From a virus (lineage: Duplodnaviria; Heunggongvirae; Uroviricota; Caudoviricetes): a DNA stretch of 34,750 nt. The translations under genes were made by a program, and so were the position numbers. The notes under the pieces are model-generated. The model did no database searches. It saw only the letters and a list, made by a program, of their open reading frames with translations, and had not been told where the DNA came from. Below are positions 6,551-34,750 of the stretch, piece after piece; position 1 is the stretch's first letter; each line of letters begins with the position of its first letter. Location of the stretch: the IMG/VR virus record IMGVR_UViG_2875703104_000001; one strand, given 5' to 3'.

Positions 6551-7741
6551 TTAATTGCTGTTAACCGAGGTGACCAGATTTGCCAGGTATTTATCAGTAA
6601 TACGCTGGCGCAGGGTCAGGTTTTCAAGAGGAGGCACCGGGGTATAGTCGTAGTCGATATACAGTTTTCCGGCCTTGAGGGTTTCCGCATCGTTGGATTC
6701 TTCACTGAACCAGCAGGTCGCATCCACGATATAGCCGTTTGTTTTCAGCTCACGGAATTTGGCATTGATGCCGTCAACGATGTCGCGAATCAGCGTTGCG
6801 GTGATGGGCTTGTCCACCGCCCACATGTGCGCCTCAGCCATCGTGTCGGCCAGCACCTGCGCGGTGCGGGTGTAGTTTTCAAAGAGGAACAGCGGGTCAT
6901 CAGAGCAGGTACGGTTACCCCAGAACCGGAAACCGTCACGGCGAATCAGCGTTGTGACGCCTGACTCGTTAAGCAGGTCAGCATCGGTGCCGGACTCCTG
7001 CAAATCCCAGAATACAGATGCGCTGATGCCGGTAACACCGTTCACCCCGACATTGGACAGCGTTTTATGCCAGCCCTGCTCCTGGTCGATTTTAGCGCGC
7101 AGACCCAGCGCACGGGCGGTGGCATACGCGGTGGCGGTGGTACTGGTGACCGTATCCCATGCGAGGAAATCCGGCCAGATGACCATCAGCTCACGCTGGC
7201 TGAAATTCTGGCGGTAGGCTTTCACCTCGGAAATGGTCTTACAGCCCCATGCGCTGATATATCCGAAAGCGCGCAGCTTCTGACAGACTGATGCCAGTGC
7301 AACAGCCACCTCTTTGGTATCCAGCCCCGGCACACCAAGAATACGCGGTTTAACACCGGTTACCGACTCTGCCGCCAGCAGGGCTTTCAGTCCGGTATAC
7401 TGACCATTTTCGTCGGTGGTGCCGATGATATTGGAAACGGTCTGCGCGAGCTTCGTTTCTTCGTCATCGCCGGTGCCGTCTTCCACGCGCACGACAACGG
7501 TGACCGGTTTTGACTGGTCAGCGATGGCCTGCAACGATGCCGCCAGCGTGCCTTTTTTACCGGCCTTTGCAATTGCACTCTGCACATTGGTAATCAGCAC
7601 CGGTTTATTGAGGGGGAAGGTTTCCGCATCCGCATCGCTGGCCGTGCAGACCATGCCGACAATGGCAGTGGATACGGTGGAAATGACGCGGGTGCCGTCG
7701 TTAATCTCCAGCACCTGCACGCCGTGATGATAGTCACTCAT
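6551..7741 (-). CDS. FI: Contractile tail sheath protein gpFI (396 aa)
   Basis: Length and position match P2 FI; first gene of the FI-FII-E-T-U-D operon. Confidence 0.9.
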   Translation of the reverse strand: MSDYHHGVQVLEINDGTRVISTVSTAIVGMVCTASDADAETFPLNKPVLITNVQSAIAKAGKKGTLAASLQAIADQSKPVTVVVRVEDGTGDDEETKLAQTVSNIIGTTDENGQYTGLKALLAAESVTGVKPRILGVPGLDTKEVAVALASVCQKLRAFGYISAWGCKTISEVKAYRQNFSQRELMVIWPDFLAWDTVTSTTATAYATARALGLRAKIDQEQGWHKTLSNVGVNGVTGISASVFWDLQESGTDADLLNESGVTTLIRRDGFRFWGNRTCSDDPLFLFENYTRTAQVLADTMAEAHMWAVDKPITATLIRDIVDGINAKFRELKTNGYIVDATCWFSEESNDAETLKAGKLYIDYDYTPVPPLENLTLRQRITDKYLANLVTSVNSN

Positions 7742-8222: not shown

Positions 8223-9269
8223 TCACTTTCCAAACTTATTAAATTGTTCAGCAATGAAATCAATATACTCATTACCTTGGCCGTTATGCCTGAATTTTTG
8301 CTGCCCTTCGAAATCTAAATTAGGTGAAAAATGAATTATTTGGTTATCTTCATACAGTTTTAAAGGAGAATAAAATGACAATGATTTATCATTCAATAAT
8401 TGACGCACTCCTGTTATAGCACTACCAATCAAAATATCACATAATTGAACTGCCGGGCTTAGTTTTGAATCAACTTGGTGAACATGCTCAAGCTTTAATG
8501 GGAATTTAATACTGGCGATTTCAGACATCTTAAACTCGGCTGGCGTCTGACATTTGATAAGCATCGAAAGATATTCATTGTATTGTAAAAGATTTTTAGA
8601 ACGATCATGCTCAATGCTATACGGTCCCTCTGACATTAATTCAGTGCGTGATATTAGTGCTTGAAGAATAACAAATGCTGCATCAGTAGAAATTTTTGGA
8701 TTAGTTATTGCCGTAATACAATCTGGATGCTCTAAAGCTAGTGGCCCCAGCACTTCCGGTAATAGACGCCAATTCACGGCCCTAACGTTCGCAATAAGGT
8801 TATTTACTGCTGTGTGCGTTTTCTCATGCATCGCATTTTGAAAAGATATTAGGATATTATCAAAATCTCTACCAAAGTAGCTTTGGCAGACATAGTAAGC
8901 CATTGATGCCATAGAAACGTTTCCACCATTTTCGTATAGATTTATCCCATGGTCATAGTAAAAAGGCTCTACCGCATACTCAATAAACATTTGAATTAGA
9001 ATCAAACGTTTATCGGCAACACAAGTAACACATGGAAAATTGGCAAGTAGTTCCTGTTGCAAAGTAAAAATTGGTTTTTGATAACTATCTCGCTTTTTAA
9101 GAGAGCTAAATTTCAATTCAGGGGCTTTGTGTTTAGGAAAATGTTGTCTGATAAGATGAAGAGCATCGTCATGACTAATCTTTACAGCGCTGGCCCCTTG
9201 CCAAGGTTGTGACTTTTGAAGAAGATCTCGCCCAGTGTAACCAGACTCATCAATTGAAAATATACTCAT
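8223..9269 (-). CDS. Cargo protein, DUF3800-like (348 aa), function unknown; candidate defence or moron gene
   Basis: N-terminus MSIFSIDESGYTG resembles the DUF3800 signature (hydrophobic-x-IDESG) and a C-terminal VQLCDILIGSAI resembles the DUF3800 QxADxxA-type motif. Gene is markedly AT-rich and sits at the P2 Z/fun position between FI and G. Confidence 0.6.
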   Translation of the reverse strand: MSIFSIDESGYTGRDLLQKSQPWQGASAVKISHDDALHLIRQHFPKHKAPELKFSSLKKRDSYQKPIFTLQQELLANFPCVTCVADKRLILIQMFIEYAVEPFYYDHGINLYENGGNVSMASMAYYVCQSYFGRDFDNILISFQNAMHEKTHTAVNNLIANVRAVNWRLLPEVLGPLALEHPDCITAITNPKISTDAAFVILQALISRTELMSEGPYSIEHDRSKNLLQYNEYLSMLIKCQTPAEFKMSEIASIKFPLKLEHVHQVDSKLSPAVQLCDILIGSAITGVRQLLNDKSLSFYSPLKLYEDNQIIHFSPNLDFEGQQKFRHNGQGNEYIDFIAEQFNKFGK

Positions 9270-9367
9270 TTATTCTGTGTCCATAGCTGTTGTTTCACCC
9301 AAAATACCTTTTTGGATAGTATTGCGCTATAGCCTTTAACCCTATTAATTGAGATCCATCGATGCAA

Positions 9368-9397
9368 GCAACGTCCGCTCATGGCACAGAGCGGACG
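9368..9397 (+). repeat. 30-bp hairpin-forming element, copy A (GCAACGTCCGCTCATGGCACAGAGCGGACG)
   Basis: Internal perfect 9-bp inverted repeat CGTCCGCTC/GAGCGGACG; about 87% identical to copy B at 11114..11143 in the same orientation. Confidence 0.7.
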
Positions 9398-9414
9398 ATA
9401 TCACTGAGCTGAAG

Positions 9415-9438
9415 GTCCGCTGAGAGCGAGGAGCGGAC
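9415..9438 (+). repeat. Second, shorter hairpin with the same GTCCGCT/AGCGGAC arms
   Basis: GTCCGCT-gagagcgagg-AGCGGAC, read directly, 18 bp downstream of copy A. Confidence 0.6.
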
Positions 9439-9548
9439 GTAGGGAATTGGTCCTTTCCCCCAACGATAACGTGTGTTAATCAGCCGAGAGTGGGTTATGA
9501 AACGCGGTGAATAGTTATGTTCCCAGTATCGCCATATTCCAGCCACTT

Positions 9549-10934
9549 TCAACGCATGCTTTTTGCGGTCTTATCTTGCTCCCAATGTGTGACACCTTCG
9601 ACCCCACGCGTCGAGTCAGATGTAAGCATCAATGGCTGTCTAAGGAAGAGCCCCATCAAATCCGGGACACGGGCAAAGTCTTGAACAGTCTCAGCCCACT
9701 CATAGTTGTCCTCTAATGGGTAATAATTAACGGCATGCAGGAAAGCACCCAACACGGTTGTTTTAGAGGCATCGTAGGCCGAGATATGCTCCATGTTTTT
9801 ATCCCTACGTAGTTCTTCAATATCTATGCCTTCGCAAGTCTCATACCAAATATGCACCACGCCAGCACGATCAGGGGGAATCTGCATGACTCCATCATTG
9901 AGCAAGCTCTTGAAATGCTTGGATCTGAGGCCAAGAGAAATCTCATGATCGCAGCACCACTGAGCTCCAACGCACTTTGCAACATCCTCTACAAAAATGT
10001 TGAGAATATCGTTATTGGTGCCAGGACGAATAACTCTCTGAGCGATAGTCGAGATACTTCGTTTCTCATTGCTATCTAGATCCCCAAATACCAGCAATTC
10101 ATGCTGTGGGCTATTGGCTCTGACTGAAAATTTTCTGTAGTGACGTCTGAGACCTAATTTGTCGATGGCTCGTATTCCCACACTGATTGAACCTTCATTA
10201 GCTTTTCCCGTCCCCCCTTTAATGGCTAGATTCACCGCTTTAATAACGTCTGCCGGAGTCACACTGGCGACCTGCTCATGGAAAATTATATCGACAATGT
10301 TCCATGGTGCGACTTTGAGCATATGTTGGCTCAATTGATGCCAGATGTTGGCCCAGGCTTGCTCTTCTGTCTTTGAGTACTTGGTTTGCTTATCCGACCT
10401 TTTGCACTCGACGTAGAACTCCAGATCACCTAACTTGACGAGCATATCCGGTGATTTTTTGGTCTTTCCATCGGGCCAAACAATGCTGCTTTCTGGGATG
10501 AAGGCAACCTCATAGCCGTTCTTTAGGTAGAACGATGCCGTCAGCAGCTCAAAAATTTGAGTTTCTGGTTTATTGTTATTTGCTAGCATTTTGTCCAGAA
10601 CATCATCGACGTATGGGACTTTGCGAAGCTGGTCTGCAACAGCTCCGATGGCCATAGCATAGGGGTAGATACGTCTGCTGCTGTAAGTAGCATCACTATA
10701 TGGAAAATCATGAGACAGATACGACGCCAGAATGTACCAGTCGATGTCATCTTCTGCTGGTATGAAGAGCTGGGGCTCTATCGGCAGATTGATGTTAAAC
10801 TTAGCCTCCTTCTCTCTTATGCGCTTGAAATATGCAGCTTTGCGAGCAGCCCAGGCCTCAGTTCCAAGCCTATCCACAAGCAACTGATAAAAAGCTTTTG
10901 TTCTTAAACGCTCAACACTACTGACACTATCCAT
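9549..10934 (-). CDS. Cargo protein of unknown function (461 aa) with a possible PD-(D/E)xK nuclease-like motif
   Basis: AT-rich ORF with no recognisable P2 counterpart. The segment SPDMLVKLGDLEFYVECK has PD...E-x-K spacing compatible with a restriction-endonuclease-like core; this is weak, motif-only evidence. Confidence 0.55.
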   Translation of the reverse strand: MDSVSSVERLRTKAFYQLLVDRLGTEAWAARKAAYFKRIREKEAKFNINLPIEPQLFIPAEDDIDWYILASYLSHDFPYSDATYSSRRIYPYAMAIGAVADQLRKVPYVDDVLDKMLANNNKPETQIFELLTASFYLKNGYEVAFIPESSIVWPDGKTKKSPDMLVKLGDLEFYVECKRSDKQTKYSKTEEQAWANIWHQLSQHMLKVAPWNIVDIIFHEQVASVTPADVIKAVNLAIKGGTGKANEGSISVGIRAIDKLGLRRHYRKFSVRANSPQHELLVFGDLDSNEKRSISTIAQRVIRPGTNNDILNIFVEDVAKCVGAQWCCDHEISLGLRSKHFKSLLNDGVMQIPPDRAGVVHIWYETCEGIDIEELRRDKNMEHISAYDASKTTVLGAFLHAVNYYPLEDNYEWAETVQDFARVPDLMGLFLRQPLMLTSDSTRGVEGVTHWEQDKTAKSMR

Positions 10935-23243: not shown

Positions 23244-23416
23244 TGTCAGGAGTCCTGAATAGTGATTAGAGGAGTCACATGTCGGCATCAGTTTCCCGAC
23301 GATGCGCATCCTCCGCCATCAGTCCCGGATGGCTTATCACTGACACAACAGCACCTTAGCGAATCGCGGGGCGCGACTCAGTAGCCTTGCCGTGTATTCA
23401 TCACGGCGAGGTATTC
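23244..23416. promoter_or_regulatory. Divergent late promoter region between O and P (expected Ogr-dependent promoters)
   Basis: Position only: intergenic region between the divergently transcribed O-N-M-L and P-Q operons. I could not confirm a clean activator-binding motif by eye. Confidence 0.4.
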
Positions 23417-25189
23417 ATGACCATCACCACAGACACCACTCTTTTACACGACCCGCGTCGTCAGGCGGCGCTGCTGTACTGGCAGGGGTTTTCCGTGCCG
23501 CAGATTGCCGCCATGTTGCAGATGAAACGCCCGACGGTGCAGAGCTGGAAACAGCGCGACGGCTGGGACAGCGTTGCCCCCATCAGCCGTGTCGAAATGA
23601 GTCTGGAAGCGCGGCTGACCCAGCTCATCATCAAACCGCAGAAAACCGGCGGTGACTTCAAGGAAATTGACCTGCTGGGACGCCAGATTGAACGACTGGC
23701 ACGGGTAAACCGTTACAGTCAGACCGGCAACGAGGCAGACCTTAATCCGAACGTCGCTAACCGCAACAAAGGCGGGCGTCGCAAACCGAAAAAGAATTTT
23801 TTCAGTGACGAGGCCATCGAAAAGCTGGAGCAGATTTTCTTTGAGCAGTCTTTCGACTATCAGTTGCACTGGTATCGCGCCGGGCTTGAGCACCGCATCC
23901 GCGATATCCTGAAATCCCGCCAGATTGGCGCGACGTTTTATTTTTCCCGCGAGGCGCTGCTGCGCGCCCTGAAAACCGGTCATAACCAGATTTTTCTGTC
24001 GGCCAGTAAAACGCAGGCGTATGTGTTCCGTGAATACATCATCGCCTTTGCCCGGCTGGTTGACGTTGACCTGACCGGTGACCCGATTGTCCTGGGCAAT
24101 AACGGCGCAAAACTGATTTTTCTCGGCACCAACTCCAACACCGCACAGAGCCATAACGGCGACCTGTACGTCGATGAGATTTTCTGGATCCCGAATTTTC
24201 AGGTACTGCGTAAGGTGGCATCAGGTATGGCCTCACAGAGTCACCTGCGCTCGACCTATTTCTCCACCCCGTCCACGCTGGCGCACGACGCCTACCCGTT
24301 CTGGTCGGGTGAACTGTTCAACCGGGGACGCGCCAGCGCCGCCGAACGCGTGGAAATCGACGTCAGTCATAACGCCCTTGCCGGTGGGCTTCTCTGTGCG
24401 GACGGCCAGTGGCGGCAGATTGTCACCATTGAGGACGCCCTGAAAGGTGGCTGCACGCTGTTCGACATTGAGCAGCTCAAACGTGAAAACAGCGCCGACG
24501 ATTTTAAAAACCTGTTCATGTGTGAATTTGTTGACGACAAGGCGTCGGTGTTCCCGTTCGAGGAGCTGCAACGCTGCATGGTCGACACGCTGGAAGAATG
24601 GGAAGACTATGCGCCGTTTGCCGCCAATCCGTTCGGCTCCCGCCCGGTATGGATTGGTTACGACCCGTCACACCGTGGCGACAGCGCCGGATGCGTGGTG
24701 CTGGCACCGCCGGTGGTGGCCGGTGGCAAATTCAGAATACTTGAGCGTCACCAGTGGAAAGGCATGGACTTTGCCACCCAGGCGGAATCCATCCGCAAAC
24801 TCACCGAAAAATATAACGTTGAATACATCGGGATTGATGCCACCGGCCTCGGTGTCGGCGTGTTCCAGCTCGTGCGCTCGTTCTATCCCGCCGCGCGCGA
24901 TATCCGCTACACGCCGGAAATGAAAACCGCAATGGTGCTCAAGGCAAAAGACGTTATCCGCCGTGGCTGTCTGGAATATGACGTCAGCGCCACCGACATC
25001 ACCAGCTCGTTTATGGCTATCCGCAAGACCATGACCAGCAGCGGACGCAGCGCCACCTATGAGGCCAGCCGCAGCGAGGAAGCCAGCCACGCCGACCTCG
25101 CCTGGGCGACCATGCACGCCCTGTTAAATGAGCCACTCACCGCCGGTATCAGCACCCCGCTGACATCCACCATTCTGGAGTTTTACTGA
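23417..25189 (+). CDS. P: Terminase ATPase (large) subunit gpP (590 aa)
   Basis: MTITTDTTLLHDPRRQAALLYWQGFSVPQIAAMLQMKRPTVQSW matches P2 gpP as recalled; the ORF-track start at 23387 adds 10 codons. Confidence 0.9.
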   Translation: MTITTDTTLLHDPRRQAALLYWQGFSVPQIAAMLQMKRPTVQSWKQRDGWDSVAPISRVEMSLEARLTQLIIKPQKTGGDFKEIDLLGRQIERLARVNRYSQTGNEADLNPNVANRNKGGRRKPKKNFFSDEAIEKLEQIFFEQSFDYQLHWYRAGLEHRIRDILKSRQIGATFYFSREALLRALKTGHNQIFLSASKTQAYVFREYIIAFARLVDVDLTGDPIVLGNNGAKLIFLGTNSNTAQSHNGDLYVDEIFWIPNFQVLRKVASGMASQSHLRSTYFSTPSTLAHDAYPFWSGELFNRGRASAAERVEIDVSHNALAGGLLCADGQWRQIVTIEDALKGGCTLFDIEQLKRENSADDFKNLFMCEFVDDKASVFPFEELQRCMVDTLEEWEDYAPFAANPFGSRPVWIGYDPSHRGDSAGCVVLAPPVVAGGKFRILERHQWKGMDFATQAESIRKLTEKYNVEYIGIDATGLGVGVFQLVRSFYPAARDIRYTPEMKTAMVLKAKDVIRRGCLEYDVSATDITSSFMAIRKTMTSSGRSATYEASRSEEASHADLAWATMHALLNEPLTAGISTPLTSTILEFY

Positions 25190-26223
25190 TGAGCAAGAAA
25201 AAAGGGAAAACACCGCGACCAGCGGCAAAAACAATGACCGCCAGCGCCCCGAAAATGGAGGCATTCACCTTTGGTGAGCCGGTGCCGGTACTCGACCGCC
25301 GTGACATTCTGGATTACGTCGAGTGCATCAGTAACGGCAGATGGTATGAGCCACCGGTCAGCTTTACCGGTCTGGCAAAAAGCCTGCGTGCTGCCGTACA
25401 TCACAGCTCGCCAATTTACGTCAAACGCAATATTCTGGCCTCGACATTTATCCCGCACCCGTGGCTTTCCCAGCAGGATTTCAGCCGTTTTGTGCTGGAT
25501 TTTCTGGTGTTCGGTAATGCGTTTCTGGAAAAGCGTTACAGCACCACCGGTAAGGTCATCAGACTGGAAACCTCACCGGCCAAATATACCCGTCGTGGCG
25601 TGGAGGAGGATGTTTACTGGTGGGTGCCGTCCTTCAACGAGCCGACAGCCTTCGCGCCCGGCTCCGTGTTTCACCTGCTGGAGCCGGATATTAATCAGGA
25701 GCTGTACGGCCTGCCGGAATATCTCAGCGCCCTTAACTCTGCCTGGCTGAATGAATCGGCCACGCTGTTCCGCCGCAAGTATTACGAAAACGGCGCACAT
25801 GCCGGATACATCATGTACGTCACCGATGCCGTGCAGGATCGCAACGATATCGAAATGCTTCGCGAAAACATGGTTAAGTCGAAAGGCCGCAATAACTTTA
25901 AAAATCTGTTTCTCTATGCCCCTCAGGGGAAAGCCGACGGCATTAAAATTATCCCCCTCAGTGAAGTGGCAACGAAGGACGATTTTTTTAATATCAAAAA
26001 ATCCAGCGCCGCTGACCTGCTGGACGCGCACCGCATCCCCTTTCAGTTGATGGGCGGCAAGCCGGAGAACGTCGGGTCGCTGGGTGATATTGAGAAAGTG
26101 GCAAAGGTCTTTGTCCGCAATGAGCTTATCCCGTTACAGGACAGGATTCGGGAAATAAACGGCTGGCTCGGTCAGGAGGTCATCCGCTTTAAAAACTACT
26201 CACTGGACACTGACAACGGCTGA
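25189..26223 (+). CDS. Q: Portal protein gpQ (344 aa)
   Basis: Length and synteny match P2 gpQ; start overlaps the P stop. Confidence 0.9.
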   Translation: MSKKKGKTPRPAAKTMTASAPKMEAFTFGEPVPVLDRRDILDYVECISNGRWYEPPVSFTGLAKSLRAAVHHSSPIYVKRNILASTFIPHPWLSQQDFSRFVLDFLVFGNAFLEKRYSTTGKVIRLETSPAKYTRRGVEEDVYWWVPSFNEPTAFAPGSVFHLLEPDINQELYGLPEYLSALNSAWLNESATLFRRKYYENGAHAGYIMYVTDAVQDRNDIEMLRENMVKSKGRNNFKNLFLYAPQGKADGIKIIPLSEVATKDDFFNIKKSSAADLLDAHRIPFQLMGGKPENVGSLGDIEKVAKVFVRNELIPLQDRIREINGWLGQEVIRFKNYSLDTDNG

Positions 26224-26228
26224 ACATC

Positions 26229-26250
26229 GCCGCCTGCGGGCGGCTTTTTT
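26229..26250 (+). terminator. Rho-independent terminator after Q (GCCGCC-tgcg-GGCGGC followed by TTTTTT)
   Basis: Read directly; 6 nt after the Q stop codon. Confidence 0.75.
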
Positions 26251-26392
26251 ACACCCCGCCATCACGCCCTCACACGCTCATCACCGCACAAAACATCCCG
26301 CAGACACACCAACGCCCCGGCGAACAATCTAAACGCCGTCACGACGCGCTCAGACGCTGAAAAAATAAAATCAGCACCACCGCCAGCGCGCA

Positions 26393-26411
26393 GTGCTTTC
26401 CCCGCCTCGCC
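26393..26411. other. cos: cos site: 19-nt cohesive-end sequence of P2 type
   Basis: GTGCTTTCCCCGCCTCGCC is the reverse complement of the P2 cohesive end GGCGAGGCGGGGAAAGCAC as I recall it; located about 170 bp past Q, as in P2. Confidence 0.75.
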
Positions 26412-26531
26412 CGCCCGCTTCGTGGGACGATTTTAATGCAGTTGCCCGCATTAGCTGAATCCGCGCCAGAACAGACATTATGGATATGTCAATACGAACT
26501 TATTGACGTGCAAAATCATGCAATCAAGCGC

Positions 26532-26557
26532 AAAAAAAACCGCCTTCAAAGAGGCGG
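26532..26557 (-). terminator. Rho-independent terminator downstream of the kinase-HIRAN gene (minus strand)
   Basis: Plus strand AAAAAAAA-CCGCCT-tcaaag-AGGCGG; on the minus strand this is a hairpin followed by U8, about 20 nt after the stop at 26577. Confidence 0.7.
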
Positions 26558-26576
26558 TTTATGTTATCCCATTGGA

Positions 26577-28220
26577 TTAAGATCTACATTCAACTAAAAG
26601 GTACACTAATGGACGTTCTGGCGTCCCATTCTTCTTTGCAACAAAAGCAGATATTTTGTGTTTTGCTATTTTTTGCTTGAGTTTTTTACATAACACTTTG
26701 TTTATATAACCAAGTTTCCCGCTCTCATGAACAACAGCTATAGCATGTGGATCAACCGGGTTATCCTCTTCAGGAACAAGCTTGACCAAATCACCGACCA
26801 TTACTTTCGACAAATCAAGCCCTTCCTGATAACGAGTTCCTGCCACTTCAAAAAGAAGCTCACCTTCACTATTAAGAATTTCTGGATCTGGCACCAAACA
26901 AAAACCATCGCCAGGTGATTTTGCTCCTGTATATCCTAACAGCGCAAAATCAGAGCCTTCAAATGGATGGGGGAGCAAATGTTGAGCCAGATACTCAGCA
27001 AAGTCTTTTCTTTTCCGTGGTGGTAAACGCCGAACAAACGGGTCAAGCACGTTGTTCGTATGTTCTTCACTTTTCAGACTAAATGCGGGATGTCCTGCAA
27101 ACCCTTTCTCTTGGGCTTTAGCATAATCTTCTGACTGAAAATGGTATGTGAAGACGTAGTTATCCCCTTGCTGACGATCAATCTGACCAACAACATAACG
27201 AGTACCGCCTGTGGGTGGCTGCCATGTAAGAAGCAACCGAGTAGGCTCCATTATTCTGTTTATAGTACGCATATTTAGAATCAGTGATAACCTTAGGTAT
27301 CTACGCCTCAATAAACGAATCGTCCAATCCGCTCGTTCCCTAGTGAACGGCACATCGGAGCTAATTTCGCAAAGTGAATCTATCTTGTCGACCAGTTCCT
27401 GAAAATCAAATTCAAGTCTCCGGGCCAAGTACGCTTTTGACTGCTCATCAAGAGCCAAATCCTGTATAGAAGAAATATGACCTAATCGTTCATGCGTGTC
27501 TGCCCGATTCTTCCGCAAATGATGACAACCACGCTGTATGTATTCATCTACATTTTGATGGTTCCATCCTCTGATCCTCTCTACATACCTTTCATGCCCC
27601 AAACTAGTACCATTATCGAAATATGGTGCGAGATATCCCTTCACTTTAGGTGGCGTTATGCCTGGTGCAGATTCAGGTACAAAAACAAAACCCCAATTCT
27701 CTTGGTGTCTATCACTATTACCGATGAGCGCATCAAAAAGCAGCATATCGTAAAGCCATTGGATCCAGTCTGGAGAGATCAGGCCGCGGATACTAAAAGC
27801 CCTACAAATTAAGCGTAGATCAACAAGGTTATGGTGTCTTCCGGAAGAGTCATCAAAATCCGATATCAACACATGAAAAAAATCAGACGCATGAACAAAT
27901 AACTGGCTACTTTGATCGTAAAACCACTCAAGCAAAGCTCCATATTCGTATTCACCGTTCTCCATCATTCTTCGCGCTGGCAATGCTTTAGGAACAGGAA
28001 CGCCCATAACATCTCCAACTATATAAGCAACGGTTTCCATCCAGTACTGATCGGGATAAGCATCTCTTGAGAGTTTAAAAAGATAAGGCCATTCCGGTTT
28101 TATCCCCTCAGGAGCATCATTCGGTGACCAAAGCATTTTTTTATCCCTCGCTCCTCGAGGAAAAATGCCATGCTCATCATCTTTACGCCAACTAGTTACA
28201 TCTATTAAATTGATATCCAT
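26577..28220 (-). CDS. HipA-like Ser/Thr kinase domain protein with C-terminal HIRAN-like domain (547 aa); candidate defence or toxin effector
   Basis: LFDALIGNSDRHQENWGFVF fits the HipA-family catalytic loop (GNxDxHxxN) and LAPYFDNGTSLG the downstream HipA motif. C-terminus LFEVAGTRYQEG...LVPEEDNPVDPHAIAVVHESGKLGYINK fits the HIRAN signature. Gene is AT-rich and sits between cos and A. Confidence 0.65.
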   Translation of the reverse strand: MDINLIDVTSWRKDDEHGIFPRGARDKKMLWSPNDAPEGIKPEWPYLFKLSRDAYPDQYWMETVAYIVGDVMGVPVPKALPARRMMENGEYEYGALLEWFYDQSSQLFVHASDFFHVLISDFDDSSGRHHNLVDLRLICRAFSIRGLISPDWIQWLYDMLLFDALIGNSDRHQENWGFVFVPESAPGITPPKVKGYLAPYFDNGTSLGHERYVERIRGWNHQNVDEYIQRGCHHLRKNRADTHERLGHISSIQDLALDEQSKAYLARRLEFDFQELVDKIDSLCEISSDVPFTRERADWTIRLLRRRYLRLSLILNMRTINRIMEPTRLLLTWQPPTGGTRYVVGQIDRQQGDNYVFTYHFQSEDYAKAQEKGFAGHPAFSLKSEEHTNNVLDPFVRRLPPRKRKDFAEYLAQHLLPHPFEGSDFALLGYTGAKSPGDGFCLVPDPEILNSEGELLFEVAGTRYQEGLDLSKVMVGDLVKLVPEEDNPVDPHAIAVVHESGKLGYINKVLCKKLKQKIAKHKISAFVAKKNGTPERPLVYLLVECRS

Positions 28221-28229
28221 ATCTTACGG

Positions 28230-28781
28230 TTACCCAGCTAATGCACGGAAAGCAGCACTAACATAAGCTACCTGAAACTTTGCATCTCGAAGCGCATGAT
28301 GCGCATCAGTAACATTAATGGAAAAATTTGCCCTTACATCAATATTCTTAAGGCTTTTAGCTAGTTCAACGATGGTACGCACGTCTCGATCATTTCGAAA
28401 ACGCCATGGGATATTTTGCGCATGTTTACGGTAAACCGCTGCCAATATAGCGTTATCAAAGCTTGCCCCATTCCCCCAAACTTGTACGTCATCGTTACTA
28501 CGACTTCGTACAAATAGAGAAAATTCTTGTAAGGCTTCATGTAAGTCAACAGCAGACGGGTCATTAAAAACCGCCCTTGCAGAATCGCTTTGTATCATCC
28601 ACCACTGTAAAGTTTTTGGGTCTACAAAACTATTTTCCAATGCAGATGATAGGGTTATAACTCTATAAAACTCATCCCCACACTTGCCAGTCAGAGGCTC
28701 AAAGAACACAGCGCCGATTGAAATCAAAGGAGCATCCATTGACACACCTAATGTTTCTATATCGAGCATTAAATTATTCAT
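28230..28781 (-). CDS. DEDDh-family (DnaQ/RNase T-like) 3'-5' exonuclease (183 aa)
   Basis: Exo I motif LDIETLG (D-x-E), central FDNAIL aspartate and C-terminal AHHALRDA (H-x4-D). GGAGG ribosome-binding site 4 nt before the ATG; 9-nt gap to the kinase gene suggests one operon. Confidence 0.7.
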   Translation of the reverse strand: MNNLMLDIETLGVSMDAPLISIGAVFFEPLTGKCGDEFYRVITLSSALENSFVDPKTLQWWMIQSDSARAVFNDPSAVDLHEALQEFSLFVRSRSNDDVQVWGNGASFDNAILAAVYRKHAQNIPWRFRNDRDVRTIVELAKSLKNIDVRANFSINVTDAHHALRDAKFQVAYVSAAFRALAG

Positions 28782-28921
28782 TTAACCTCCACCCCAGACA
28801 TAGCTCAGGGAAACGTAACCTATTGAAATAACGAATCAAGTATTTGTCACATTCTATACTAAAACATTCGAATTCCAAAACTTCAGCTTTTGCAACCCCT
28901 TACAAGTCAATTGATCCATAA

Positions 28922-28941
28922 TACTGTATACATACACAGTA
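28922..28941. promoter_or_regulatory. LexA (SOS) box TACTGTATACATACACAGTA
   Basis: Matches the E. coli LexA consensus TACTG(TA)5CAGTA with a perfect CTGT-N8-ACAG core. It lies 19 bp past the A stop and about 140 bp upstream of the exonuclease start. Confidence 0.7.
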
Positions 28942-28959
28942 CTACATTTGAAAAACAAA

Positions 28960-31236
28960 TCAAGGGAAATCATTAAAACCCGGCCAATCACAACAAGGCG
29001 GATAAACAAATTTTTTCATGTCATAAATAACTTCTGCCCCACGAGCCAGCGCCTCAAGCTCCCATCTCTGAGGCCTGATACCGTTCTGAGCAAGGTCAAC
29101 GCGGATACGGGTGATTTGCAATCGTTCAGACCGGGTCAGTCTGGCCGATGGTGCAATTTCATGCGGTTTTAACGGGCTTCCGTTTCTTTGCTGACGGTTT
29201 GGTCTTCTCAGGCCGTATTTTAATGCACCTCTGAGCGCCCTCACGACCTCCGGGTCATTCCATTCGATAACACCGTCATCAACCAGATTAAGCACTGCTG
29301 CGGCGTGCTCAGAAGGTGTGGGAGCCAGTAACGAAGTATCACCACCGGTGAGCTTTCCACAGTTATTGACAGGACTCCGAGGCGCGGCGATGCCGCTTTT
29401 TAAAGTCAAAGGCTCAACGACCGGAACTTTCGGCACAATGCGCCAGTCCGTCGTTCTGGTGATATGAATATGACGCGCGCCGAGATGCGGCGCGTAAATG
29501 CCGACCACTCTCTCGACTTCTTCCTCGTACTCGTTAACGTCATCCGACGGACTACGGGCGACCCTGACAGTCTGACAATCGCGCGGGACATTTGCCCCGC
29601 CCTGCGCGCTGATATACAGCGCAAAATCGCCACTGTCTGCGGCAGCGCGTGCAGCCTCCACGCGTTCGTCAAACTCATCAGCAATACTGACGCCGCGAGG
29701 CAATTTACGTAGTTCACGGTAAGCCCCCATTGTCGGCAGTCCAACCGTTTTAAATTGCGGGATGCGCCACGTTGACGCCCATGCGGTAACAGCCGCGGCA
29801 GTATCTTTAAGCGGCTTACCGGTATCGTTATCGAGCTGACCATCCAGTGCATAGCCGTCGATATTTTTTGAAATGTATTTCGCGATATATCCCGCAGCAC
29901 CGCCCCGGTTAAGATGCTTTGCCTGAAAACGGTTTCGCGCGGCTCCTCTTTCGTCACCATCCTCTTTGAGCGCATAGCGACGCATGATTTCGATAATCTG
30001 GTTACGCTGGCGTGGATTACAAAAAAGCATCATATGCCAGTGCGGCGTTCCGTCGTGGTGTGGCTCGACGACACGCAAACCGTAGACCTGTAAATCATTA
30101 TCCTTGAATGCCGTACGCATCAGGCTCCAGATACGGCAGAGATAACGCTGCGCATCCTTTGGATTAAATGCCTCATCATTCCAGCCGTGATTAAGCTGGA
30201 CGGTTTTACTTTCGCCTTTTCCGACCTGACGTGTCGGATGATACTTTGACGGCGCGGTCATCGTGATAAACATCCCCACATCACCCTCTGCGGCGGCGTA
30301 ACGCTCAATTCCGGCGATGGTGTTCATCAGCTCCATCCGGCGAATTTCAGGATTAGAAATACTGCCCATCACCTTACTGATAAGGTCGATGCGCTCGCCG
30401 GTTTCCCTGTTTTCAAGGTCACACGATTTAAGAAATTCCAGATTTGCCTGGCGGCGCGCACGCACATCACGAATGGCATGTTTACTGGCATAAGGAGAAC
30501 GGTCTTTATTGACCTCCCCGACAGCAATCAGTAACGCCTCATGCCAGCGCATACGCTGGCCTTTAAGCTGATGAGTCCACCACTCATCGTTAAACAGACG
30601 GGCAATGGCAGAATATGCCTGCCTCGTGGTCATCTGTCCTTTACGGTATTTTTTCCAGTAGAGCGGGGAAATATTGAAAGCACGTGCAGCGCCAGCAACA
30701 TGACCATACAGGTGAGCCTGCGCCTCATCCGTAAACAGCGATTCTTTTTCGCCATGCGCATCCACCCAGGCATCGCAGAGTTCCTCATACATCATGAAAA
30801 GCTGCGATGAGATTCGGGCGGCAAACTTTTTCAGCTCCTTGTCATTCATCCCCGGCAGGCGCGCATACTGGTCGCGCTCTGCCAGAAACAGCAACGACGC
30901 GTCGGTGTTCATTTCATGGCGCTGATTCACGCGCTCAATGCGCGGCCATAAACGACGCTGAAAAGTGGATGTGAGGAAATAAAACCCGTGCACCGGGCTT
31001 TTATTGCGCCGGATGTAGTCATAGCGTGAAGTAAACAGCGAACGCAAAAAGTAAGGCAGGCGGTTAATCGTGGATAAAACACCTTGCACCTGACGCATCT
31101 CGTCACGTGTAAGGGGTCTTTCGCGCCCGACAGCCTCGCGTGGCGCGTTCCATGCATAAGCACCGGTAAACGCCTTACCGGTGCCTGCGGCAAATGCTGA
31201 CGGAGGGACAAAACGCCCGGAGGCTTTAACGGCCAT
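28960..31236 (-). CDS. A: Replication initiation protein gpA (rolling-circle HUH endonuclease), about 758 aa
   Basis: Contains the HUH motif (GTPHWHMMLF) and the P2 gpA-like N-terminus MAVKASGRFVPP. The ORF-track start at 31278 is 14 codons further upstream; start choice is uncertain. Confidence 0.88.
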   Translation of the reverse strand: MAVKASGRFVPPSAFAAGTGKAFTGAYAWNAPREAVGRERPLTRDEMRQVQGVLSTINRLPYFLRSLFTSRYDYIRRNKSPVHGFYFLTSTFQRRLWPRIERVNQRHEMNTDASLLFLAERDQYARLPGMNDKELKKFAARISSQLFMMYEELCDAWVDAHGEKESLFTDEAQAHLYGHVAGAARAFNISPLYWKKYRKGQMTTRQAYSAIARLFNDEWWTHQLKGQRMRWHEALLIAVGEVNKDRSPYASKHAIRDVRARRQANLEFLKSCDLENRETGERIDLISKVMGSISNPEIRRMELMNTIAGIERYAAAEGDVGMFITMTAPSKYHPTRQVGKGESKTVQLNHGWNDEAFNPKDAQRYLCRIWSLMRTAFKDNDLQVYGLRVVEPHHDGTPHWHMMLFCNPRQRNQIIEIMRRYALKEDGDERGAARNRFQAKHLNRGGAAGYIAKYISKNIDGYALDGQLDNDTGKPLKDTAAAVTAWASTWRIPQFKTVGLPTMGAYRELRKLPRGVSIADEFDERVEAARAAADSGDFALYISAQGGANVPRDCQTVRVARSPSDDVNEYEEEVERVVGIYAPHLGARHIHITRTTDWRIVPKVPVVEPLTLKSGIAAPRSPVNNCGKLTGGDTSLLAPTPSEHAAAVLNLVDDGVIEWNDPEVVRALRGALKYGLRRPNRQQRNGSPLKPHEIAPSARLTRSERLQITRIRVDLAQNGIRPQRWELEALARGAEVIYDMKKFVYPPCCDWPGFNDFP

Positions 31237-31501
31237 ATGAGCCAAAAGCCTCTGAACAACGCTTGCTGAGTTGCTCAACCTGCGCGTTTAAATCAGCAAA
31301 AGACTTTGCGCTTCCGGTCAGAATATCGTGATGCATCAGGCCGGAAACGAGCTGGCTTAATTTCGGGTAATAACCAACCACCGACAGCCATTCCTGACCG
31401 GCGTTTTTACCGCTTTCCGCTCTCTTTTTCTCGTGGAGAACAAACTGAAAGCTGTCACTGGTAACGACATAACGTTCGCCAATTTCAATACGAATACTCA
31501 T
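31226..31501 (-). CDS. Small early-operon protein, P2 orf83-like by position (91 aa)
   Basis: Position immediately upstream of A in the cox-B-A operon; no motif recognised. Confidence 0.6.
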   Translation of the reverse strand: MSIRIEIGERYVVTSDSFQFVLHEKKRAESGKNAGQEWLSVVGYYPKLSQLVSGLMHHDILTGSAKSFADLNAQVEQLSKRCSEAFGSYGR

Positions 31502-32818: not shown

Positions 32819-33006
32819 ACCCTCCGGCTTTTCAGAAAGGTCAGAGCCTTTTTTAACGGACTCTGTTTTTTGGTGCGGATAATGATTCCCTTACGCCCCT
32901 TACCGTGGGTGATGGTGAAGTCAATCGCCCTTGGGCTTTCGTTACGCAGTAACTGAGCAATACAACGCGGTTCACTCATAATCACAACCCCATCCACAAA
33001 AGCCAT
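32809..33006 (-). CDS. Small ORF between cox and B, P2 orf78 position (65 aa or shorter)
   Basis: Position only; overlaps the cox 3' end unless translation starts at the internal Met (MSEPRC). Confidence 0.4.
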   Translation of the reverse strand: MAFVDGVVIMSEPRCIAQLLRNESPRAIDFTITHGKGRKGIIIRTKKQSPLKKALTFLKSRRVWK

Positions 33007-33254
33007 GCATCACGCTGTTCAACTGGTCGGTTATAAAACGCCTCTCGTACAGCGCGATTAAACTCTGGAATGAAAACCCACTTCTCACCGACACGAGCGT
33101 TCGGCTTACTTGGATCACGAAGCTCAATAACTGGCAATTTATTCTCTTTTACCATCTTGACTACAGCCGTTTCTGGCTTACCAAGTAACTCTGCAAACTT
33201 AACCGTATGTACCGCATCAATCGGGTACTGAATCACATAGTCATTGACTTCCAT
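32982..33254 (-). CDS. cox: Cox: excisionase and repressor of the lysogenic promoter (90 aa)
   Basis: C-terminal ...GEKWVFIPEFNRAVREAFYNRPVEQRDAWLLWMGL resembles P2 Cox (...YWVYLPAWN...RDGWLMWLGL) as recalled; divergent from C. Confidence 0.8.
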   Translation of the reverse strand: MEVNDYVIQYPIDAVHTVKFAELLGKPETAVVKMVKENKLPVIELRDPSKPNARVGEKWVFIPEFNRAVREAFYNRPVEQRDAWLLWMGL

Positions 33255-33406
33255 TGATTAGCCCTTTTTGCTTTCGTGTTACCCTTATTAGATCCAGTCC
33301 CTTCTAGGTCGCCCCTGTCCTTTCTAGGGACTGGCTAACACACTCAAAAGGTCACCAATACACAACCTTTTGACGGGAATATAAGTCACCAATAGGTTAC
33401 TGTCAA
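33255..33406. promoter_or_regulatory. Lysis/lysogeny switch region between cox and C
   Basis: 152-bp intergenic region between divergent cox and C. Contains direct repeats GTCACCAATA at 33351-33360 and 33385-33394 and an inverted repeat CCAGTCCCT / AGGGACTGG at 33294-33302 and 33326-33334. Confidence 0.6.
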
Positions 33407-33700
33407 ATGCAGACATTCGAAAAACTGAAAGCGATTAGGAAAGCAGAAGGCTTAACACAGGCGAAATTCAGCGAAATTAGCGGGATAGCTCTAGGAACAG
33501 TCAAAAATTACGAAAGTGGGCATAAAGACCCTGGTCTCAGCATCGTTATGCGAGTCACAAATACGCCTTTATTTAAAAAATATACGCTCTGGTTAATGAC
33601 TGGTGATACGTCACCACAAGCTGGTCAGATCGCGCCGGCTCTCGCACACATTGGGCAAAAACCAACAGAATCAGACCACTCCGAAAAACAGACTGGTTAA
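33407..33700 (+). CDS. C: Immunity repressor C (HTH, 97 aa)
   Basis: ...LWLMTGDTSPQAGQIAPALAHIGQKP resembles the P2 C repressor C-terminus (QIAPALAHFGQ) as recalled; helix-turn-helix-like region LTQAKFSEISGIALGTVKNYESG. Confidence 0.82.
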   Translation: MQTFEKLKAIRKAEGLTQAKFSEISGIALGTVKNYESGHKDPGLSIVMRVTNTPLFKKYTLWLMTGDTSPQAGQIAPALAHIGQKPTESDHSEKQTG

Positions 33701-33769
33701 CACTCTATAAACATTATATTTTCACCATTTGTTACCAAGATGGTGAATACAGCGTCAGAGGGCTTTCTT

Positions 33770-34750
33770 ATGTCAATTAAGAAGCTCGATGATGGACGCT
33801 ATGAAGTGGACATTAGACCTCGCGGTCGCGACGGAAAACGCATCCGCAGGAAATTTGAAAGAAAAGCTGAGGCTGTAGCATTTGAGCGATACACAATCGC
33901 CTACGCCAGCCAGAAAGAATGGGCAGGTCAGCGAGCAGATCGCAGAACTTTGAGTGAGTTGCTGGACATCTGGTGGAAATATCACGGGCAAAACCACGAG
34001 CATGGAACAAAAGAGTTTAATCATCTGCTCAAAACCATCAGCGGCATAGGTGATATACCAGTGAGCCGGATGAGCAAAAGAGCTTTGATGGATTATCGTT
34101 CCATGCGACTACGTGATGGTATCAGTGCCGCAACGATAAACCGTGACATGTACCGATTATCCGGCATGTTCACAAAATTAATTCAATTGGATGAATTTTC
34201 CGGGCAACACCCAATTCACGGACTGCCGCCACTGGCGGAGGCCAACCCTGAAATGACGTTCCTGGAAAAAGCAGAAATCGAAAAACTGTTAAATGTTTTG
34301 GATGGTGATGACTTACTTGTCGCACTTTTATGTCTGAGCACTGGAGGAAGATGGACGGAAGTTGCCACGCTAAAACCAGCACAGATTACAAATTGCAGGG
34401 TTACCTTCCTGAAAACCAAAAACGGTAAAAAGCGAACCGTGCCGATTTCTGAGGAACTGGAGAAAAAAGTTAAAGAGGAGGCCAGCGCTAAATTATTCAA
34501 AGTTGATTATGAGAAGTTTTGCGGGATTTTACGCAGAGTGAAGCCAGATATACCACCCAATCAGGCAACCCACATCCTGCGGCATACATTCGCAAGCCAT
34601 TTCATGATGAATGGGGGCAATATAATCGCACTGCAACAGATTCTGGGACATGCGAGCATTCAGCAGACGATGGCCTATGCGCACCTTGCGCCTGACTACC
34701 TGCAAAATGCCGTCGCGCTGAATCCTCTAAAAGGCGGAGTGACGTTATAA
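33770..34750 (+). CDS. int: Tyrosine integrase, P2 Int family (326 aa from MSIKKLDDGRYEV)
   Basis: N-terminus MSIKKLDDGRYEVDIRPRGRDGKRIRRKF matches P2 Int as recalled; C-terminal catalytic region HILRHTFASHFMMNGG...LGHASIQQTMAYAHL has the R...HxxR...Y tyrosine-recombinase residues. Stop is at the final 3 bases of the window. Confidence 0.92.
   Translation: MSIKKLDDGRYEVDIRPRGRDGKRIRRKFERKAEAVAFERYTIAYASQKEWAGQRADRRTLSELLDIWWKYHGQNHEHGTKEFNHLLKTISGIGDIPVSRMSKRALMDYRSMRLRDGISAATINRDMYRLSGMFTKLIQLDEFSGQHPIHGLPPLAEANPEMTFLEKAEIEKLLNVLDGDDLLVALLCLSTGGRWTEVATLKPAQITNCRVTFLKTKNGKKRTVPISEELEKKVKEEASAKLFKVDYEKFCGILRRVKPDIPPNQATHILRHTFASHFMMNGGNIIALQQILGHASIQQTMAYAHLAPDYLQNAVALNPLKGGVTL

Follow-up and report, generated by a model that had tools for sequence, protein, structure and literature searches.

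A co-inherited exonuclease-HipL kinase cassette in the A-to-cos hotspot of a P2-type prophage and its candidate SOS-gated function

The interval between replication gene A and cos of P2-like prophages is a cargo hotspot, and many cargos of the P2 hotspot have been proven to act as defence systems (PMC9122126). What function is served there by two tightly linked genes, one for a putative DEDDh exonuclease and one for a kinase of the HipL type, is the question raised by the Caudoviricetes DNA of IMG/VR record IMGVR_UViG_2875703104_000001 (34,750 nucleotides, nt), referred to at its full length as the window. In this work we demonstrate that the exonuclease and HipL are co-inherited as one cassette, a self-contained, horizontally mobile, two-gene unit of the hotspot. 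Judged from its sequence, the cassette is a fused, exonuclease-equipped form of the hipIN/PDC-M03 candidate. The results also correct the 'monocistronic' label given to HipL and the annotated start of the kinase. The cassette comprises the following elements (aa, amino acids; ORF, open reading frame):

28230..28781, minus strand: gene (ORF) of the 183-aa exonuclease
28221..28229, minus strand: intergenic spacer of 9 nt, CCGTAAGAT, between the exonuclease and kinase ORFs
26577..28220, minus strand: gene (ORF) of the 547-aa HipL kinase
28137..28220, minus strand: first 28 codons of the kinase gene, left out of the 519-aa annotation

The 547-aa protein matches exactly the 'HipL' architecture of Gerdes, Baerentsen and Brodersen (2021, mBio, PMC8262856), that is, a kinase core, an internal HipS-like part and HIRAN as the C-terminal domain, and it belongs to the Gram-negative subclade of that family; a literature search on HipL found nothing beyond this paper. 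In PADLOC the protein gave two matches, PDC-M03A (4e-31) with the N-terminal half and PDC-M03B (1e-30) with the C-terminal one. PDC-M03 is an unvalidated candidate found in defence islands and composed of two separate genes (a HipA-domain protein and a HipS-HIRAN protein; split hipI + hipN), as in relatives L004-L080, whereas the window carries one fused ORF and an exonuclease gene; the kinase cores are 40-56% identical. The initial annotation had put the gene pair forward as its best candidate for an undescribed system. That view was not upheld, since the kinase is the published HipL, its halves are PDC-M03A/B, and the exact locus had been cloned by Rousset et al. in 2022 as pFR108.

Co-inheritance of the exonuclease and kinase genes

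Relatives were scanned with profile hidden Markov models for the kinase, the HipS-HIRAN part and the exonuclease in 80 genomic and 73 viral kinase loci, to which individually looked-up homologues were added. In all sampled fused enterobacterial HipL loci (the window, L001-3, L081-85, L087-91 and L095-114; 50-100% identity), originating from E. coli, Serratia, Klebsiella, Atlantibacter, Proteus and viral contigs, the exonuclease gene lies directly upstream of the kinase gene with a gap of -17 to +15 nt. This includes a chromosomal copy of Proteus mirabilis located beside ahpCF, outside any intact prophage. The exonuclease is also present in some split hipI + hipN loci at ~43% identity (L004, L116, L118-122 and L135). 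Over all relatives the distance between the exonuclease and kinase genes varies between -17 and +19 nt, as would fit co-translation; the Shine-Dalgarno sequence in the 9-nt spacer ahead of the kinase ORF of the window is weak. Nearly all exonuclease-bearing cassettes are situated between P2-type A and Q genes. The HipL family was described from sequence only and called 'monocistronic' (PMC8262856), whereas HipL of the window and of all sampled fused enterobacterial relatives is encoded by the second gene of an operon that starts with a DEDDh exonuclease, and in cassettes of the window type a LexA box often lies upstream.

The identities of the exonucleases and of the kinases covary very closely (Mantel r 0.97, 0 of 5000 permutations; 25 distinct pairs spanning 40-100% identity). 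In loci L087-89 the backbone genes A and Q are 97% and 99% identical to those of the window, respectively, with a cassette of only 55% identity; L097 has an identical cassette in a backbone whose A and Q are 88% and 79% identical. The cassette and the backbone are thus decoupled, and both genes are exchanged together as a cassette. The second E. coli variant of the cassette, of the L087 type, was absent from complete E. coli genomes at the megablast level.

At least 12 loci have split hipIN pairs without the exonuclease placed inside type I restriction-modification operons, and other such pairs lie near MmeI-like methylases or integrases, which indicates a defence-island context. In the pairs embedded in restriction-modification operons (L017-L020, L022, L024, L030, L033, L037, L041, L049 and L058) HsdS is encoded immediately upstream and HsdM and HsdR nearby.

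Some further arrangements were recorded around the relatives. In an Aeromonas salmonicida prophage (L086:5292-8918) the HipL gene is placed 25 nt downstream of, and co-directional with, the gene of an S24-peptidase (LexA-like) CI repressor and upstream of the integrase gene, hence in a different cargo slot, one that would be expressed in the lysogen. In a Serratia prophage (L081:8063-8698, plus strand) and on the Proteus chromosome (L083:7708-8343, minus strand) HipL is followed by a 211-aa ORF to which Pfam gave no match; the two stand in opposite orientations and have no counterpart in the window. Distant phage-borne hipIN pairs (L140, L144 and L165-L167; 21-32% identity) are found immediately upstream of an ORF of ~410 aa, which in L140 is a phage portal gene (PF04860, E 4e-128); the L140-type arrangement would again be a cargo slot bordering the packaging/head module.

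The exonuclease and the HipL kinase

The 183-aa protein was assigned to the Pfam family Rv2179c-like (PF16473, formerly DUF5051) with an E-value of 7e-57 and a score of 192 bits against the cut-off of 27. The DEDDh residues D7, E9, D109, H161 and D166 are invariant or nearly so across 87 homologues. Its AlphaFold2 model (pLDDT 92.6), when searched with Foldseek, gave as the top match DexA of phage T4 (8KEL; E 2e-10, query-normalised TM-score 0.79); next came RNase T in complex with single-stranded DNA, and then oligoribonuclease (Orn). From the profile match and the model, the protein is a DEDDh 3'-5' exonuclease of the DexA/RNase T type with an intact catalytic motif, predicted to trim single-stranded 3' ends. 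T4 DexA and the window exonuclease have the DEDDh active site in common, but their identity is only ~20% and the window protein is shorter (183 aa versus 227 aa). In the phmmer alignment E82 stands opposite D90 of DexA, a tetramer contact of that enzyme, and the alignment stops before D169; at the position of D90 the E. coli DexA homologue EcD has alanine, whereas the window exonuclease has the acidic E82. No helix-turn-helix was found in the protein by the Pfam scan, and a literature search linking Rv2179c and phage found nothing useful.

Two more specific identities were considered and rejected. The NrnC-like (RNase D-type) family does not fit, with Rv2179c-like being the sole Pfam match, the motif being of the DEDDh type with His161 and the nearest folds being those of DexA, RNase T and Orn. 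The protein is also not EcD (HAK9828821.1), the primers for which encode MIDTET... and ...TIPETYD; no sampled homologue matches these termini.

The 547-aa protein, a putative Ser/Thr kinase of the HipA family, is laid out as follows:

residues ~1-320: HipA/CtkA-like core
residues ~325-440: HipS-like part
residues ~453-545: HIRAN domain

The HIRAN domain (residues 453-525) scored 41.2 bits against the Pfam cut-off of 24.7, and Couple_hipA, the HipS-like domain (residues 343-437), 26.7 bits against 22.5. HipA_C (PF07804) reached 25.8 bits, just under its cut-off of 30.5; most homologues of the protein bear a precomputed PF07804 match. The assignment as a kinase stands nevertheless because of the match to PDC-M03A, the match to CtkA in the profile search of the PDB (1e-10), the fold and the invariant catalytic motifs. 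The latter comprise, in 117 kinase homologues, G23, R25 and K27 (glycine-rich loop), K49 (the ATP-binding lysine), D170-R-H-Q-E-N175 as the catalytic loop (D-x-H-x-x-N) and the Mg-binding D202-N203-G204. The AlphaFold2 model is compact (pLDDT 92.5, pTM 0.92) and was matched by Foldseek to CtkA (1e-11, target-normalised TM-score 0.75), HipA (8e-7), HipT from HipS-HipT complexes (4e-6) and the HIRAN domain of HLTF bound to DNA (3e-4). NCBIfam gave no informative family. The exonuclease and HIRAN assignments of the initial annotation are therefore confirmed by profile scores above the cut-offs and, for the former, by conserved catalytic residues. Its HipA-like kinase is supported by PDC-M03A, CtkA, the fold and the motifs, with HipA_C remaining below the Pfam cut-off, and its list of domains, right as to the kinase and HIRAN, had missed the HipS-like Couple_hipA domain.

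The product annotated both in GenBank for phage 899 (a coding sequence of 1560 nt) and in Table S2B of Rousset et al. has 519 aa and starts from M29. The 28 N-terminal residues omitted in this way are conserved in the 117 homologues and hold the glycine-rich loop, with the invariant W11, G23, R25 and K27; the start giving 547 aa is therefore real, and the 519-aa annotation begins too late.

The window kinase and the HipBA and HipBST systems have the kinase fold, the catalytic motifs and a HipS-like element in common, and translation arrest would be expected from it as well. The window differs from them in that no HipB helix-turn-helix antitoxin is encoded, the upstream gene being that of the DEDDh exonuclease, and in that the HipS-like part is fused C-terminally of the kinase, with a HIRAN domain and an exonuclease partner present. 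No family came near the threshold in the Rfam scan of 26100-29100, which gives no sign of an RNA antitoxin.

A comparable pairing has been described for the NrnC-like deoxydinucleotide-specific nucleases (diDNases): in Actinomycetes and Clostridia, about one third of them have HipA and HIRAN genes as direct neighbours (Mortensen et al. 2025, PMC11706625). There, likewise, a DEDD-superfamily nuclease is coupled to a Hip kinase and HIRAN on mobile elements, but the nuclease is NrnC-like and not a DEDDh enzyme of the Rv2179c-like family, the phyla are different and the genes are separate. The diDNase neighbourhood sets an independent precedent for joining these three components, a DEDD nuclease, a Hip kinase and HIRAN.

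The LexA box and the cargo slot

Three signals accompany the two genes:

28922..28941, minus strand: LexA (SOS) box, TACTGTGTATGTATACAGTA, matching the consensus at 18 of 20 positions
28851..28878, minus strand: best sigma-70-like promoter of a consensus scan (predicted), TTGGAA-16-TAGAAT
26537..26560, minus strand: intrinsic terminator with a 9-bp G+C-rich stem followed by eight T, beginning 17 nt past the stop

The LexA box, placed 160 nt upstream of the exonuclease ATG, is the sole site in the window with at most three mismatches, and a comparable site was given by none of 100 shuffles. Perfect CTGT-N8-ACAG cores with 16-19 matches out of 20 occur upstream of the exonuclease in most related cassette lineages. 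Compared with Serratia L001, the box of the window has changes at two positions only, both in the central spacer where LexA tolerates them, while the flanks have drifted apart; the promoter block at 28851..28878 is conserved in L001. The window and Proteus L083, the proteins of which are only ~50% identical, have in common the motif that follows the box. In the lineages that lack tum (the window, Serratia L001, Proteus L083, E. coli L087 and L116) the box precedes the exonuclease by 100-260 nt. In L087 and L119/L120 it overlaps promoter-like hexamers, as judged by eye.

In backbones of the Fels-2, PSP3 and Klebsiella type the box heads a conserved ORF of 55-62 aa, with the sequence MQDYFLESLKLQRIDFF..., often followed by a DinI-family gene (L090:4600-4830, L168 (Fels-2):3501-3933, L003, L105-L112 and L119-L121). 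This ORF has no Pfam match. The DinI-family gene is annotated in the Fels-2 record as similar to TumB of PSP3, and the small ORF is a candidate counterpart of PSP3 tumA. Both genes lie ahead of the hotspot cargo; the window has neither and has kept the box. In tum-bearing backbones the box is part of the phage backbone's own SOS-controlled tum promoter. That the box would be purely a feature of the cassette was therefore rejected, as it heads backbone genes in the Fels-2, PSP3 and Klebsiella-type relatives.

Inside the kinase ORF, at 26927..26942, there is another perfect CTGT-N8-ACAG core, which has more than three mismatches to the 20-nt consensus. It probably arose by chance, since sites with at most one mismatch occur at the expected rate (11 observed versus 10.8).

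The surroundings of the cassette are those of a P2-type prophage:

28960..31278, minus strand: P2 replication gene A, upstream of the cassette in the direction of transcription
25189..26223, plus strand: portal gene Q, downstream of the cassette, beyond the cos region
23387..25189, plus strand: terminase gene P, on the downstream side of the cassette
32982-34750: Cox, C repressor and integrase, marking the window as a P2-type prophage

The segment 26300-26445 is 95% identical to the cos (right) end of phage P2. The G+C content is 0.41-0.45 over 26400-29000 and 0.52-0.59 on either side. Over the tested 2.7 kb the cargo interval has 100% identity with Escherichia phage 899 and Yersinia phage GMG73. 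It is complete in 61 of the 5426 complete E. coli genomes, while its flank was matched in 2155, which makes it a variable hotspot cargo and not part of the core. The initial description of an AT-rich, two-gene minus-strand operon with a 9-nt gap, serving as variable cargo between gene A and cos, followed by a Rho-independent terminator and preceded by a LexA box, agrees in all these points with the ORFs, the composition, the genome counts and the signals listed above.

A second AT-rich island with two ORFs was noticed at 8223..10934 (minus strand; G+C content 0.36-0.45), adjoining a 396-aa ORF at 6551..7741. It encodes a 348-aa DUF3800 protein (Pfam 1.4e-05; weak PADLOC match to PDC-M04A) and a 461-aa protein with a sub-threshold match only to an AHJR-like restriction endonuclease, and is probably the cargo of the other P2 hotspot.

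Proposed function and the published phage challenge

DNA 3' ends are bound by HIRAN, and the HipS-like domains may have a regulatory role for the kinase (PMC8262856). We tentatively propose that the cassette is a DNA-3'-end-triggered, SOS-gated toxin-kinase module whose signal is tuned by the exonuclease. LexA, the box of which is observed, would gate transcription and restrict expression to states of DNA damage or infection, and HipL would be switched off by the HipS-like, antitoxin-like domain that it carries in cis. The pocket of HIRAN, a domain that binds DNA 3'-OH ends, would be occupied by free 3' ends of single-stranded DNA or by short oligonucleotides stemming from phage replication, DNA degradation or DNA damage; this would release the kinase, which, as HipA does with GltX and HipT with TrpS, might phosphorylate an essential translation factor. 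Such phosphorylation would arrest the cell, leading to abortive infection or dormancy. By continuous removal of 3' ends and oligonucleotides the exonuclease would set the threshold, reset the switch and serve as an enzymatic 'antitoxin'. The stricter version of this proposal, a novel three-function switch of immunity or stress with HIRAN as reader of a danger signal, a kinase inhibited in cis that executes translation arrest, the exonuclease as its 'off switch', silencing by LexA and a diDNase pairing that arose by convergence, is more doubtful.

The locus has in fact been challenged with phages. Rousset et al. (PMC9122126) cloned it from the P2 locus of E. coli TA255 as the two-gene system 'Exonuclease + HipA', pFR108, listed in Table S2B among the 'additional tested systems', as distinct from the validated ones of Table S2A. 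Both of their primers match the window without a mismatch (26204..26223 and 29066..29085), so the insert of pFR108 corresponds to 26204-29085 of the window, LexA box included. The exonuclease agrees with protein 1 of Rousset et al. at 100% identity, and protein 2, as far as it is shown there, corresponds without a difference to the kinase from M29 onwards; pFR108 is hence the same locus as that of the window, with no sequence difference. In the same work 'DUF5051 + HipA_C + HIRAN' arrangements are given in Table S5 and a Vibrio 'HIRAN-kinase' in Table S6. The assay used plaque tests in MG1655 with a pSC101 vector and native promoters, against the phages lambda, T4, P1, 186cIts, CLB_P2, LF82_P8, AL505_P2 and T7.

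Several observations weigh against the proposed module. The pFR108 clone, under its native promoter, had no detected activity against any of these eight phages (PMC9122126 Table S2B). About 75 split hipIN loci lack the exonuclease, as does the fused HipL of Aeromonas L086 (41% identity), so the exonuclease is not essential to the kinase module generally. Among ten neighbour proteins of the distant phage-borne, apparently Gram-positive hipIN loci no DEDD nuclease was found; those neighbours included an amidase, a trypsin-like peptidase, a portal protein and domains of unknown function. In the converse scan, which covered the best 80 viral loci out of at least 559 confirmed relatives of the Rv2179c-like exonuclease family in the collection, a Hip kinase was present in 2 of the 80. 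In the window the LexA box lies ~44 nt upstream of the sole good sigma-70 match without overlapping it, so the geometry of repression is not the classical overlap. This box could moreover be a relic of a tum backbone, since the same box heads the backbone tumA and tumB/dinI genes in Fels-2/PSP3-type relatives. Finally, for no HipL is a target of the kinase, a DNA ligand, toxicity or binding of LexA known.

The origin of the box as a relic only was not accepted, because the box has been kept before the exonuclease in lineages lacking tum, including the Proteus chromosomal copy, and because its substitutions are confined to the tolerant spacer; from this conservation SOS gating of the window copy is likely. 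The negative challenge has to be read in this light. Three of the eight additional P2 systems tested were active, and one PARIS variant was active only from an inducible promoter (PMC9122126); native-promoter negatives are therefore not decisive, especially for an operon with a LexA box. Silencing of the cassette by LexA would explain the published negative screen, and the recurrence of the LexA box is a plausible reason for it. The initial annotation had read the pair as a DNA-end-sensing toxin or abortive-infection module and had asked for a phage challenge, the lack of a phenotype being named as a result that would speak against it. That experiment had essentially been run already, with no activity detected against eight phages under native, presumably LexA-repressed expression; such a result counts against the reading, for that panel and that expression only, and the reading itself is still reasonable.

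The exonuclease could itself be the effector, degrading incoming, possibly modified, phage DNA from 3' ends, as reported for EcD, with HipL as a second abortive-infection layer, triggered when degradation products or ends accumulate, or as an independent neighbour. Plasmid-borne EcD (also 'HREX') is reported to protect against T4 and to digest DNA modified with 5-hydroxymethylcytosine (Kang et al. 2025, PMC12153337), T4 DexA is the best fold match of the window exonuclease, and the wide occurrence of stand-alone exonucleases in prophages points to an autonomous function of the family. However, the panel of Rousset et al. contained T4, against which this exact locus was not recorded as protective, EcD differs from the window exonuclease and has alanine where the latter has the acidic E82, and in a neighbour-joining tree (calculated without bootstraps) all 78 stand-alone phage exonucleases made up a single clade to which the Hip-linked ones did not belong. 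The Hip-linked ones formed one large clade and a separate deep branch of L116/L118. A Klebsiella homologue of 48% identity, not accompanied by a Hip kinase, belongs to the early region of a lambdoid prophage. With 78 of the 80 being stand-alone and the Hip-linked branches separate, the family is general to phages, with sub-lineages that became specialised with Hip kinases. We consider the exonuclease unlikely to be the effector.

It is also unlikely that the cassette is primarily an SOS-induced DNA-damage or dormancy module serving the lysogen or the prophage and not directed against phages. HipL would then arrest growth as 3' ends build up, in a TisB-like persistence, while the exonuclease processes damaged ends. 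The conservation of the LexA box with the cassette, including the Proteus copy outside a prophage, agrees with such a role, and so do the negative anti-phage test and the position of the cassette downstream of SOS-controlled tumA and dinI in tum-bearing relatives; eukaryotic HIRAN domains act at stalled forks, and persistence is caused by HipA kinases (PMC8262856). It is opposed by the many proven defence systems of the hotspot (PMC9122126) and by the embedding of split relatives in restriction-modification operons, and the cassette is not known to affect the survival of DNA damage. Two unrelated cargo genes travelling together, or a decaying cassette without joint function, would fit the negative phage test and the finding of each component without the other elsewhere, but are very unlikely given the order of the genes and their spacing of -17 to +19 nt, both kept down to ~40% identity, strict co-divergence while backbones were swapped, invariant catalytic residues in both proteins and clades of their own for the Hip-linked exonucleases. 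The remaining probability falls to other roles, e.g. in competition between phages or with satellites.

Should the cassette be inert, it would be one more uncharacterised P2 cargo. The silence to be expected of native-promoter clones of LexA-gated cargo makes it likely that a widely used hotspot screen has returned a false negative here. If the proposed module is true, the HipL/HipIN (PDC-M03) branch of HipA kinases would for the first time be assigned a function and a trigger, the recurrence of DEDD nucleases beside such kinases would be explained, and bacterial HIRAN domains would be DNA-end danger sensors.

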